DNA of 32,000 nt, from contig NJBF01000037.1 in the NCBI GenBank assembly GCA_003144275.1, forward strand, positions 6,818-38,817, given 5' to 3'. Position 1 is the first letter of the stretch. Each line of letters opens with the position of its first letter. Source of the DNA: Candidatus Heimdallarchaeota archaeon B3_Heim. Its GTDB lineage: Archaea; Asgardarchaeota; Heimdallarchaeia; Hodarchaeales; Hodarchaeaceae. The notes beneath the pieces were generated by a model that made no database searches, had not been told where the DNA came from, and worked only from the letters and a program-made list of their open reading frames with translations. Below, piece after piece: positions 12,138 to 31,911 of the stretch. Both the position numbers and the translations under genes were made by a program.

Positions 12138-12864
12138 TTATTTCAGTGAATTTTTTCTTGCTTTTATGAGATACCAAAATTGATTGGTAATTACTATCTC
12201 TGGAGTAAATCCCACTTTGGCTAATAACGTTGAAACTACGTCTGCTGTCCGATCGTTAGTAACACGGCGTTTACCGTAGGCTGTTTCAATAGCTTTACCG
12301 CTAGGTGTTATAACATGATCATTTTTGTCCGATAATTCCATAGTGTTCATATTCGCTGACCTCTCTCTCTTTCTCTTACAAACTTAAAAGGCGTCCCGCC
12401 CGTACTTCATCAACGCCGAGGTGATGACAAAAAAATTTACTTAGCTCCTAGGTCATATTCCCTTGTAACTTCGTTAGACGAGTTACCCGTCAAAGGCAAG
12501 AGAAGAATGATCCAGACTGGTCGAAAAGTATTGGTGTTTGGGATGTCGCCAGAAGATCTGATGCAAGTAGTCCCAATGGAAAGCAGTAATTCTCTTGTTG
12601 CTAACCTGCCGGATAGTGGATGTGTGACTCATCCTGTCCAGAACTATTTTTCAAATAGTTGTCTGACAAATTTAGTCATGGGGTTTCGCTTCATCAATTT
12701 CAGATTGGAGTTTATCGATAGCAGTTGCTTTTTTTTTCCCAATTTGGGCAATTATCCCCTCACCCCCCCCCAACATCCAGTATAGATCCACTAGGGATTT
12801 CTTGAACATTAATAGTTTGTCTAGGGTACTGAAAAAATTCTTCAAGATTACTTACGATCTTCAT
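12138..12864 (-). pseudogene. Class I SAM-dependent methyltransferase pseudogene (frameshift, element insertion, probable internal deletion)
   Basis: ATG 12864 MKIVSNLEEFFQYPRQTINVQEIPSGSILDVGGG; frameshift in G9 run (12763-12771); then EGIIAQIGKKKATAIDKLQSEIDEAKPH; element 12318-12676; then VITPSGKAIETAYGK...KVGF...FWYLIKARK. Confidence 0.8.
12318..12676. mobile_element. Non-autonomous element (MITE-like), copy 1, 359 bp
   Basis: CATG at 12314-12317 and 12677-12680; subterminal TTGTCCGATAA (12325-12335) and TTGTCTGACAA (12659-12669); inverted near-identical copy at 15352-15706; interrupts a gene. Confidence 0.9.
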
Positions 12865-13010
12865 AGGAATCAAATAACATTTTTTCTATGCTATTAATTA
12901 TTGGTGCGCATCTCAGACCAAAAAATCATGGACGAACGATTTCCATTATTAGACTCTATGTTATTAAAAAAGAAAAAAGAGGAGAAAATATCAAGTGGAG
13001 CCCAAAAAAT

Positions 13011-13214
13011 TTATTTTTCGGCTGCTAATTTGACATCATTCTCTTTTACGGTTTTTCGTCCATTGTGACGTGCAATTTCAACTGAATATTTGGCTAAGTT
13101 CATACCATAGTCAGTTAAGATCTCATTCAAGCGGTTAATTGCGCCAGCAGATACTCTAAAAGCGCCTGCGGTTCGAATGAGTTTTTCTACACGTGCTCGT
13201 GCAAATCCAGTCAT
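13011..13214 (-). CDS. Archaeal histone (HMf-like), 67 aa
   Basis: FARARVEKLIRTAGAFRVS...A...GRKTVKENDVKLA; ATG at 13214 after AAGGTGA RBS. Confidence 0.95.
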   Translation of the reverse strand: MTGFARARVEKLIRTAGAFRVSAGAINRLNEILTDYGMNLAKYSVEIARHNGRKTVKENDVKLAAEK

Positions 13215-13245
13215 ATTTTTCACCTTTTCTCAATATTAAGTTGTT

Positions 13246-13297
13246 CTGAGTCATTTAATAGACTCAGTGGTTACGAAAATCCTCTATATATTTATAA
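13246..13297 (-). promoter_or_regulatory. Histone promoter: TATA box plus 7-8-7 inverted repeat
   Basis: TTATAAATAT on minus strand (13288-13297); CTGAGTC-N8-GACTCAG at 13246-13267. Confidence 0.55.
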
Positions 13298-13559
13298 GTT
13301 TTATTCTACAACAATGCACGTTCTAGATATCTCGATGTTACTTTTTGCACTCGGATTGATTTAGCTAGCTATGGAAAATACTTTTTCACGATCTTCAAGC
13401 TGAACTAGATAATATATTATGTATTCACTGAGGATAGATACTCTATTCATAAATGATTTGAAAAAGACAATAATTTTACCTGATGCTTCTATCAGCCAAG
13501 GGAAATAGATCTGAAAATATAAACTCGCTATCTAGAAAAAAAGGGGGAAGTGAGAGTTT

Positions 13560-15781
13560 TTATACTCTCTTTCTTCTCGAGAGAATAGGAACTGAGATAA
13601 TGACTCCCATGATGCTGATAAACTCCCATCCAGGTGAGAGACTTGGAATGGTGTTATTATCAGTTGTCTCACCAGTGAATGACTCCATAAGCTCAAATTT
13701 GAAGATTGATATTTCAGAGCCATTAGTAGAAATGGAACCAGATATTAATTCAAGCTTTTCAAGTACACCAGTTTGTCTATTCCACTGAAATTCGAGAACT
13801 CCGTCATCAGAAGGTTGAGTTTCATTATAATTCCATGTTAGTCGATAATAATCACTTTCTTCAATTAAATAAGTATTATCGAACATTTTGAAGTTGGATA
13901 GATTTCCATAAATTGGGAGAAAAAGGAAGTTATTAATTCCGTTTCCTAGATAATCATCTGTATTTTTATGTATTTCAACTTCTATACCCCATTCAACAAA
14001 TTCAAACATTATCAGTTTGAGTTGATCTCCCTGAGCTAAAGATAGCGGGATATTTTCTTCTGTGTTTTTATTACGAAACCATTCTGTTAAATCAACTTCA
14101 GCTGATGCACCACTATATTCAGTCAAACTATAGATGAAAGTGTCACCAACTGAAATTGAAAAGTCCTCTTGAGTAAAGCTATCATCAGGTTTTTCATCGA
14201 TTTTTGGTGGATAAAATCCCTTTCTAATCCAAATATTATCCCAAAAAACTAAGGTTTCAGTGTTAATTTCTTGGTTATCAAAACCAAAGCCAATATTTCC
14301 ACATTTAAAGACGTTAAAATCATCATTTGTGAAAATTATATAGGATTCTAGCTCTTCTTCTTGAAGAAATACCTGAGTTATTTGTTTGTCACTTTCTACA
14401 GCAACCGCTATGATTAAACGCCCCCATGTTAGTTGTGATTCCATTGGCATGGAATAAAAAGTAGATTTTTCGCCTACCTCATTTTGAGCTCCAAACTCAA
14501 GAACATTTCTCTGATAGCTATAGCGAACATACTGAACGTCTGCACCACTGTTGAATCGCCATCCAAGTAACAATATATCTCCATTTGCAATGTGAATATC
14601 ATAATCAACCTCAATGGTGTAACTGTACAAGTCTTCATAAGTTTCCAAACCAGATGTTGTTAACCAACCACTTTCTGAAGAAACATTATTGAAATAATAT
14701 CCACGCAACCATTCATTCTCAATATCCCAATTTCCTTCTGGTCCTCCATACCAGACATAAGGATCAAGATTATAGCTGGAAAAGTCATCATAGTAAATAG
14801 TTTCATCAGTTGGGTGGTCTGGAGGCGTGTGATATCCTGTATATACACTAATATTGTCAAATCGTGCAGAAGAGTTATAATATAACCCAAAACCGATATC
14901 CTCTAAATTAGGAACATTCATCATCATACTTGAGATAACTGGTTCTCCATTTACCCAGAGATCAAGTTGTCCACCAGCTACAGCCATATGTACAACGGCC
15001 CATTTGTCCGTTGGAAATTGATAGTCAAAATCATATAAACTTCCATAAGAATCAATATAGTGAGAGTATCCCGATGTTGATCCTAATTCCATTACTGCAT
15101 ATCCAGAGTAATAGTTGAAAATGAAATGAAACTGTTCTTCTCCATACCCTGACAACAAATTTACATCAAAGATTACTGTATATTCACTCATATTGAAGAT
15201 CGTATCGTCTAATACTATATCATCCCACATTTCATTTGTACTAATGCCATTAAGACTATTATCAAGAAAATCACATGCACCGTTCATAACAGTCCAGTAT
15301 CCATTATCTACTTCAAAATCTTGGAAATATACAAGATCATCAGGAGCCATGACTAAATTTGTCAGACAACTATTTGAAAAATAGTTCTGGACAGGATGAG
15401 TCACACATCCACTATCCGGCAGGTTAGCAACAAGAGAATCATTGCTTTCCATTGGGATTACTTGCATCAGATCTTCTGGCGACATCCCAAACACCAATAC
15501 TTTTCGACCAGTCTGGGTCATTCTTCTCTTGCCTTTGACGGGTAACTCGTCTAACGAAGTTACAAGGGAATATGACCTAAAAGCTAAGTAAATTTTTTTG
15601 TCATCACCTCGGCGTTGATGAAGTACGGGCGGGACACCTTTTAAGTTTGTAAGGGAGAGAGAGGTCAGCGAATATGAGAAATATGAAATTGTCGGACAAA
15701 AATGATCATGGCTTGAGGAATAGTTGTTATTAACATCGGTAAAAAGAGAAGGATTAAAAGCATTTTTTTCTGATTTTTCAT
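13560..15781 (-). pseudogene. Secreted surface protein (two lectin/LamG-like beta-sandwich regions, C-terminal PGF-CTERM-like anchor) interrupted by element copy 2
   Basis: Signal peptide MKNQKKMLLILLFLPMLITTIPQAM from ATG 15781 (GGAGGA RBS) rejoins APDDLVYFQDF in frame when the element and one CATG are removed (620 aa); C-terminus PSLSPGWEFISIMGVIISVPILSRRKRV. Confidence 0.85.
15352..15706. mobile_element. Non-autonomous element (MITE-like), copy 2, 355 bp
   Basis: CATG at 15348-15351 and 15707-15710; TTGTCAGACAA (15359-15369) and TTGTCGGACAA (15689-15699), each 7 bp inside an end; about 12 substitutions and a 4-bp indel versus copy 1 by manual comparison. Confidence 0.92.
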
Positions 15782-31670: not shown

Positions 31671-31707
31671 CCACGAAAAATATCATTTGAGAAAAGGTGA
31701 AATAAAA

Positions 31708-31911
31708 ATGGCAGGATTTGCACGTGCAAGAGTTGAAAATTTGATTCGTACCGCAGGCGCTTTTAGAGTATCTGCTGGCGCAATTGATCGTCTTAATGAA
31801 GTGTTAACTGATTACGCTATGAGTATGGCAAAATATGCTGTAGACATTGCAAAGCACTCCGGAAGGAAGACTGTCAAGGAATCAGACATTAAACTCGCAG
31901 CAACCAAGTAA
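31708..31911 (+). CDS. Archaeal histone (HMf-like), 67 aa, paralog of 13011-13214
   Basis: FARARVENLIRTAGAFRVS...KHSGRKTVKESDIKLA; 53 of 67 residues identical to the first histone. Confidence 0.95.
   Translation: MAGFARARVENLIRTAGAFRVSAGAIDRLNEVLTDYAMSMAKYAVDIAKHSGRKTVKESDIKLAATK

Follow-up and report, generated by a model that had tools for sequence, protein, structure and literature searches.

A 32,000-nucleotide stretch of DNA from the Asgard archaeon Candidatus Heimdallarchaeota archaeon B3_Heim (contig NJBF01000037.1, positions 6,818 to 38,817; the whole stretch is referred to here as the window) contains two inverted copies of a repeat of ~360 bp, each flanked by CATG on both sides. 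The locus raises the question of what kind of element the repeat is, from what it was derived and what type of enzyme moves it. Each copy is very probably a non-autonomous derivative, formed by internal deletion in the manner of a miniature inverted-repeat transposable element (MITE) or palindrome-associated transposable element (PATE), of an element in the same genome that has tnpB as its only gene. The window is located on contig C86 of a metagenome-assembled genome (MAG), designated G000, which comprises 3.95 Mb in 103 contigs and is 94% complete and 3.9% contaminated. The comparison set consisted of 22 genomes of the genus, including G000 and a sister genome, G013.

The two copies are 95.4% identical over 368 nt, and the inverted arms of the pair match over 317 nt at 97% and over 56 nt at 91%. 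An 11-bp palindromic box, TTGTCNGACAA, is located 7 bp inward of the CATG at all four ends. An earlier note on this DNA described two CATG-flanked copies of 359 and 355 bp with a box 7 bp inside each end, one of them with a mismatch, and this description is accurate throughout, the lengths being those of the interiors between the CATGs. The limits and ends of the copies are as follows.

12314-12680, + strand: miniature copy 1, 367 bp with both CATGs, left end at 12314 and right end at 12680
12314-12317 and 12677-12680: CATGs of copy 1, enclosing an interior of 359 bp
12314-12335, + strand: left end of copy 1, consisting of CATG, 7 bp and the box TTGTCCGATAA at 12325-12335, with 1 mismatch to the palindrome
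12659-12669, + strand: right box of copy 1
15348-15710, - strand: miniature copy 2, 363 bp with both CATGs, right end at 15348 and left end at 15710
15348-15351 and 15707-15710: CATGs of copy 2, enclosing an interior of 355 bp
15359-15369, - strand: right box of copy 2
15689-15710, - strand: left end of copy 2, consisting of the box TTGTCGGACAA at 15689-15699, 7 bp and CATG at 15707-15710

The earlier note proposed a search for other copies, and G000 was found to possess about 23 full copies of ~360 bp (69-100% identity) which that note had overlooked. Seventeen of these are full-length miniatures with 76-100% identity to copy 1 and about six are more diverged; many fragments are present as well. 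Fragments that match only the right-hand ~117 bp of the miniature led to five elements of ~1.42 kb (C61:10966-12383, and others on contigs C69, C44, C57 and C8), each of which has a single open reading frame (ORF) of ~420 aa. The ORF encodes a TnpB according to Pfam PF07282 (Cas12f1-like_TNB) and PF01385 (OrfB_IS605) as well as NCBIfam NF040570, 'RNA-guided endonuclease TnpB family' (215 bits versus a cut-off of 100), and all five full-length TnpBs retain a complete set of RuvC D/E/D residues together with an intact CxxC...CxxC zinc finger. G000 has at least five intact tnpB copies, and further copies of the element are cut off at contig ends. Both ends and the internal blocks of the miniature are colinear with the tnpB element on C61, as listed below in miniature coordinates.

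1-22: corresponds to 1-22 of the C61 element; left end
34-58: corresponds to 75-99 of the C61 element; left-end interior
~70-115: aligned by eye to the C61 element; TATA-like box and GAGGTG..ATG start region of tnpB
148-184: corresponds to 762-798 of the C61 element; RuvC-I coding stretch, reshaped into a hairpin
251-367: corresponds to 1303-1418 of the C61 element at 90% identity; tnpB 3' tail and right end

That the ends and the right-hand third of the repeat come from a tnpB-bearing element had escaped the earlier note, and its label 'unassigned' gives way to a place in the IS200/IS605-IS607 world. What the earlier note gave as refuting its reading, a match of the ends to a catalogued insertion sequence (IS) family, applies in part, given their correspondence to those of the tnpB element. 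The ~23 dispersed copies have conserved ends and no transposase-sized ORF. A conserved ORF within the miniature was ruled out, since there is a stop codon in subfamily B and the frame is broken between subfamilies. The tnpB-only architecture is also found in other Hodarchaeota/Heimdallarchaeota MAGs, and the few relatives detected on metagenome contigs are all tnpB-only. In four sediment or cold-seep metagenomes, the summed contig depth of the element interior, compared with its flanks over window positions 12404-12705 and 15273-15574, was roughly 3 to 100 times higher depending on the run; this is not an estimate of copy number, although the excess suggests that related copies are abundant in these communities.

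Movement of the family is evident from a comparison of occupied and empty sites. Six orthologous empty sites were identified between G000 and G013, each with exactly one CATG, which shows that insertion at a CATG site adds the element plus one CATG and bears out the proposal in the earlier note that the repeat is a non-autonomous mobile element. The copy 2 site is empty in G013 and reads AGCCATGGCT, precisely the target that had been restored on paper in that note, and a metagenome contig that joins 15347 to 15707 displays the same empty site. Conversely, five insertions in G013, one of which is a full tnpB element, are empty in G000, while two insertions are common to both genomes. These differences between sister genomes indicate that the family moved recently. 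Taken together, the sequence comparisons identify the miniature as a non-autonomous, CATG-targeting and recently mobile product of the tnpB element. At a further site (L149; G013 C203:978-1339), G000 lacks CATG and has CTAATAAG where G013 has G-CATG, a difference which could be either a footprint or divergence. The single-CATG empty sites fit three modes of integration alike: insertion 3' of a tetranucleotide, a 4-bp duplication, and recombination at a shared core. The earlier note offered a DDE-type MITE with a 4-bp duplication or a recombinase-mobilized element with a CATG core; the non-autonomous and CATG-targeting character common to both options stands, and the choice between the enzymes can still go either way.

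Full-length elements begin with CATG-ATCAAAT-TTGTCTGACAAC and terminate with the mirrored arrangement GTTGTCTGACAA-ATTTAGT-CATG, and about 20 of 23 bases match between the ends as terminal inverted repeats (TIRs). The motif CATG-N7-TTGTCNGACAA occurs 54 times in G000, 47 times in G013, 25 times in G031 and a few times in four other genomes; it is absent from the remaining 15 of the 22 genomes of the genus, and a reversed control pattern gave no occurrence in any of the 22. Given 54 and 47 occurrences versus none for the control, the arrangement is not due to chance. All end pairs in the seven motif-bearing genomes are ~360 bp or 1.34-1.43 kb apart, and no cargo other than tnpB was found between end pairs in the 22 genomes scanned. 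A search for longer copies with the same ends, as suggested in the earlier note, succeeded to the extent that it yielded the tnpB element; the transposase or recombinase that such copies were expected to reveal is not present between the ends.

Outside the CATG the target is asymmetric, with the extended form (A/C)CATG(A/G). The base preceding the left CATG is A at 16 sites, C at 12, G at 3 and T at 1 (n = 32 sites, in an AT-rich genome), and that following the right CATG is A at 19, G at 7, T at 6 and C at 4 (n = 36). At the right end, T is invariant before CATG. The near absence of T before the left CATG, set against its invariance before the right-end CATG, suggests that the transposon-associated motif (TAM) is likely (A/C)CATG. 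Within the ends, conservation is lowest in the outer 7 bp, directly inside the CATG. Some left ends carry a right-end-type outer 7-mer, ACTAAAT, rather than ATCATTT or GTTGAAT (G013 C203:978-1339; G000 C82:203-224 versus C8:203-224), and the outer 7 bp thus seem to be exchangeable between ends. G000 also contains 33-bp remnants at C8:64499-64531, C35:1462-1494 and C50:11147-11179, in which a single box is flanked by the outermost 11 bp of a left end and those of a right end; the loss of the interior coincides exactly with the repeated box. They may have arisen by recombination, slippage or abortive repair.

The portion of the miniature that is shared with the 3' end of the tnpB element appears to specify a structured RNA. 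The relevant features of the two copies are listed here.

12383-12427, + strand: promoter/start-like stretch of copy 1, with TATA-like CTTAAAAGG at 12383-12391 and GAGGTGATGA at 12418-12427; homologous to the tnpB promoter/start-codon region
12458-12506, + strand: 5' structured block of copy 1, a GTAAC...GTTAC hairpin plus closing stem, from the RuvC-I coding stretch of tnpB
12564-12680, + strand: omega-RNA-like scaffold of copy 1, 117 nt comprising the tnpB 3' tail and right end, with the P3 hairpin at 12642-12660, the box at 12659-12669 and terminal AGTCATG
12681-12696, + strand: predicted guide segment of a read-through omega RNA of copy 1, by analogy with TnpB systems (PMC10055086; 10.1101/2023.11.20.567912)
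15348-15464, - strand: omega-RNA-like scaffold of copy 2, with the right-end CATG at 15348-15351, the box at 15359-15369, P3 at 15368-15386 and GGATG/CATCC at 15394-15410

An alignment (A1) was made of 27 distinct 117-nt tails, taken from miniatures as well as tnpB elements. In it, 12 of 12 pairs in helix P1 and five of eight in hairpin P3, which adjoins the box, vary at both partner positions. Pairing is maintained in 90% of cells versus 29-45% when the partner strand is slid, the observed pairing score was not reached in any of 500 shuffles, and RNAalifold recovered the same helices independently. The remaining helices are invariant and hence lack covariation; these are GGAUG/CAUCC, UGUC/GACA through the box, and a possible pseudoknot between the loop of GGAUG/CAUCC and the terminal AGUCAU. 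The few one-sided changes in them produce G-U pairs, and in a 57%-identical relative the GGAUG/CAUCC helix has one compensatory and one broken pair. The box itself has 5-bp arms around a 1-nt centre, and a true hairpin is found at the right end only. Stem-loops which the earlier note had placed in copy 2 at 15368-15386, 15394-15410 and 15542-15563 are all found there. The tail overlaps the last ~29 codons of tnpB and stops at the transposon end, a position that fits an omega (guide) RNA, and from its sequence the 117-nt tail is predicted to be an omega RNA scaffold. A GGAUAG-N-GGAUG...CAUCC-like motif is also located downstream of a related tnpB in G013 that is linked to a serine TnpA.

The 5' block is nearly invariant across 23 copies, and its closing stem is UUCCCUU/AAGAGAA in one subfamily and CUCCCUC/GAGGGAG in another. 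Pairing of this block with P1 (CAAGAGAA with TTCTCTTG) was considered and ruled out because it does not covary. The promoter/start-like block is conserved in alignments of every miniature subfamily and presumably acts as a promoter.

Based on these features, the miniature may work as follows. Transcription from the retained promoter would proceed through the scaffold and into the right flank, generating a guide RNA directed against the copy's own insertion site. TnpB supplied by the full-length copies would load this RNA in trans, as with the omega-RNA-bearing bacterial PATEs, which depend on trans-acting TnpB (PMC10055086). Following excision of the miniature, TnpB would cut the restored (A/C)CATG and flank, and repair would use a sister chromosome in which the element is still present. 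TCATG, as found at the right end of the element itself, differs from the candidate TAM, and occupied sites would be spared; a comparable discrimination between TGGG and TCGG has been measured for an IS607 IStron (10.1101/2023.11.20.567912). The mobilizing enzyme would likewise be supplied in trans, with the CATG core and the symmetric boxes as its substrates. More speculatively, the miniatures and the 33-bp remnants that retain only the ends could both stem from repair that failed or switched templates at the repeated box. Archaeal PATEs that arose by core deletion of IS605-type elements have been described in haloarchaea (PMC3119063).

The leading guess for the enzyme, put forward tentatively and at less than even confidence, is a conservative site-specific serine recombinase of the IS607 type. 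A TIR-recognizing enzyme, of the DDE type or another, is nearly as likely, a Y1 transposase much less so, and the remainder falls to something new. The serine type is favored because of the TnpB tree, the core shared by the junctions and the target, the scarless empty sites, and a palindromic box that would suit a dimeric protein. In a 30-row tree, the family's TnpB and a solo clade 41-45% identical to it fall within a group whose transposase-linked members are all serine-linked, and a split with Shimodaira-Hasegawa approximate likelihood ratio test (SH-aLRT) support of 100 separates this group from a bacterial group holding the Y1-linked TnpBs. An earlier tree with fewer Asgard rows did not resolve whether the affinity was with serine- or Y1-linked proteins, and the NCBIfam model IS607_TnpB scores 52 bits versus a cut-off of 350. 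Elements of the IS607 type and IStrons with a serine TnpA (PMC6188088; 10.1101/2023.11.20.567912) resemble the family in that the target and the two junctions share one and the same short core, the empty site is scarless, and the TAM overlaps the core, with the element's own right end differing by one upstream base (TGGG/TCGG there, (A/C)CATG/TCATG here). They differ from it in having a GG core rather than CATG, and asymmetric arrays of direct repeats rather than symmetric ends with one palindromic box.

No IS607-type TnpA with these ends was found in the genus or the class. The IS607-type TnpAs that do occur there belong to other TnpBs, which are 23-41% identical to that of the family, and have unrelated ends made of direct repeats. 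Two such elements, each with a helix-turn-helix serine recombinase and a TnpB, are located at G013 C54:5796-7584 (L243) and on G007 C52 (L244); their TnpBs, at 34-41% identity, are the nearest transposase-linked Asgard relatives of the family TnpB, and the tail of L243 has a GGATAG-N-GGATG...CATCC-like motif as in the family. Elsewhere, G012 C240:28857-29804 (L251) has a TnpB-like region inside a very long frame of 1280 aa (789 aa within the fetched stretch), which may reflect either a fusion or an inactivated copy that is read through. The sole resolvase of G000 is Hin-like and adjoins a reverse transcriptase. This region, C2:5626-7451, encodes a 417-aa reverse transcriptase-like ORF, the Hin-type serine recombinase and a large methyltransferase-like ORF. 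It is located at a contig end and may represent a retron-like or defence island. Tyrosine recombinases gave eight matches, taken as a count only.

Several points weigh against the picture of a guide-RNA-bearing satellite moved by a serine recombinase. A transposase with these ends was found in none of the 22 genomes of the genus. The tree is a quick one with thin sampling and an arbitrary root, and only six of its 30 rows come with a linked transposase. Neither the full element nor copy 1 has an Rfam match (E-value mode), and the fold energy of the tail is unremarkable (z = -1.17). The contigs of G000, with its completeness and contig number as given above, break in these repeats, so that a partner gene could be unassembled. 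Finally, the ends are symmetric over about 20 of 23 bases, and among published TnpB elements the serine- and Y1-linked ones have asymmetric ends and only DDE-linked ones have inverted repeats (PMC10691335).

This last point favors a different possibility, somewhat unlikely overall, in which a TIR-recognizing transposase, of the DDE or another type, moves the family as a TIR transposon, with CATG or its central AT as a true duplication and with tnpB and the omega RNA as cargo. Such an element would resemble DDE/IS630-linked TnpB transposons and eukaryotic Fanzor1 elements. The near-perfect inverted repeats, with box and spacing mirrored, are what this proposal expects, the occupied and empty sites equal the pattern of a 4-bp duplication, and the 33-bp remnants and internal-deletion miniatures resemble abortive gap-repair products. 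DDE-linked TnpB transposons of, for example, the IS630 type (PMC10691335) similarly hold TnpB and a 3' omega-RNA region within inverted terminal repeats and show an apparent short duplication. They are unlike the family in having a linked DDE gene, in targeting TA rather than CATG, and in belonging to another TnpB lineage according to the small tree, where the family's clade groups with serine-linked TnpBs. The spacing of end pairs in the seven genomes leaves no DDE gene between such ends; G000 lacks an IS630-type DDE transposase, and the TIRs of its DDE_Tnp_1 elements are unrelated to the family's ends. Poor conservation of the outermost 7 bp inside the CATG would also be unusual for DDE termini. 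Orphan ends near a split DDE pseudogene on C82 look coincidental, there being no second end.

It is also conceivable, if rather doubtful, that the CATG/box family constitutes a distinct class of Hodarchaeales TnpB transposon, whose symmetric ends and 4-nt core serve a transposase other than a linked Y1 or a linked IS607 TnpA. In that case, the enzyme may act in trans and belong to a family that is new or unexpected, or it may be a serine recombinase working on a palindromic core.

Improbable on present evidence is the proposal that the miniature is an IS200/IS605 PATE moved as single-stranded DNA by a Y1 (HUH) TnpA, in which CATG would serve both as target motif, 5' of the left end, and as the motif cleaved at the right end, without duplication. 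The empty sites accommodate insertion 3' of a tetranucleotide, and the extended target (A/C)CATG(A/G) is suitably asymmetric. Archaeal IS605-type elements and PATEs also have near-terminal palindromes, sometimes the same at both ends, and a conserved terminal oligonucleotide (PMC3119063). The omega-RNA PATEs of IS200/IS605 in Geobacillus stearothermophilus (PMC10055086) and Haloquadratum (PMC3119063) are likewise gene-less, retain the guide-RNA scaffold along with the two ends of a tnpB element, depend on TnpB and a transposase in trans, arise by core deletion and have a short conserved oligonucleotide at their junctions. PATEs, however, have two same-strand subterminal hairpins, whereas the ends of the family are mirror-symmetric with a short, double-strand-type palindromic box; the family also has the same tetranucleotide at both junctions and an Asgard host. 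With arms this short and a centre of 1 nt, the box cannot fold into a useful hairpin, and the left end lacks a counterpart of the right-end hairpin. Moreover, no PF01797 (Y1 TnpA) match is present in G000, the only Y1 TnpAs among the 22 genomes are two degenerate copies beside an unrelated TnpB, and the family's TnpB clade is apart from the Y1-linked one. An IS1111/IS110-type or other recombinase element unrelated to TnpB, a likeness raised in the earlier note because the repeats are subterminal rather than terminal and the end is structured, is very improbable, as G000 has no DEDD transposase of that type (PF01548, DEDD_Tnp_IS110), the repeat is colinear with the tnpB element in two internal blocks as well as at its two ends, and the structured end is the covarying tnpB 3' tail.

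Both copies in the window have altered host genes.

13560-15781, - strand: host gene split by copy 2, start codon at 15781-15779; encodes a 629-aa protein in G013
12141-12851, - strand: remains of a class-I S-adenosylmethionine (SAM) methyltransferase gene flanking copy 1; intact ortholog in G018; Pfam Methyltransf_25/11

Copy 2 interrupts its host gene at codons ...Q-A-M-A... within a hydrophobic N-terminal stretch, which by eye resembles a signal peptide. Deleting 359 bp rejoins the gene in one frame, and the ORF is intact in G013; the protein has only a weak match, below cut-off, to concanavalin A (ConA)-like lectins. An ATG within copy 2 opens a 653-aa frame (13560-15521, - strand) that extends past the right end and continues in the body of the split gene, and the insertion could yield a protein with a replaced N-terminus that lacks the hydrophobic, signal-peptide-like stretch.

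Copy 1, a point that the earlier note missed, is not a simple insertion as judged by comparison with the G018 ortholog. It takes the place of ~218 bp of the methyltransferase gene between two CATGs, and a metagenome contig matches the window up to 12317 and from 12677 onward with 218 different letters in between. The corresponding locus in G013 has a 5'-truncated tnpB fragment in the opposite orientation, and the methyltransferase gene is gone. The locus could be a hot spot, or it could have undergone a transposase-mediated adjacent deletion that ended at a second CATG. Inversion of the 2.7-kb segment between the inverted copies was ruled out since the segment is colinear with G013. The window also contains two archaeal histone-fold genes at 13011-13223 (- strand; Pfam CBFD_NFYB_HMF) and 31687-31911 (+ strand), which appear as a 209-nt inverted repeat with 73% complementarity.

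Two further known systems bear comparison with the family. The haloarchaeal IS1341-type elements (PMC4615843) are archaeal and tnpB-only and carry sense-overlapping non-coding RNAs at the 3' end of tnpB; the family differs in that the RNA module is found in a separate, gene-less miniature family and in that ends and target are defined. Asgard TnpB transposons linked to Cas1 are unlike it, as no Cas1 (PF01867) match is present in the three family-rich genomes (G000, G013 and G031). Gene-less PATEs with an omega RNA are thus an already known kind of element. New features are the Asgard host, recent movement for which no partner enzyme was found, and the architecture of the ends, in which each junction has a CATG core and a single palindromic box is mirrored.

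For annotation of the window, the consequences concern two genes: one whose product has a hydrophobic, signal-peptide-like N-terminus is interrupted by copy 2, and a methyltransferase gene has 218 bp replaced by copy 1. More broadly, the repeat can now be defined as part of a TnpB/omega-RNA family that was recently active in an Asgard lineage and that offers a compact 117-nt scaffold, a candidate TAM in (A/C)CATG and natural guide-only satellites. Despite recent movement in at least two sister genomes, no transposase that shares the family's ends was found, and these ends are unlike the published Y1 or serine types. Elements with tnpB alone account for the majority of all tnpB loci, and the identity of the enzyme would show how such elements spread. 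Asgard archaea are placed nearest to eukaryotes by published phylogenies. If the family does prove to be a distinct class, it would be a prokaryotic counterpart of the RNA-guided nucleases that ride on TIR transposons, as Fanzor-like elements do.

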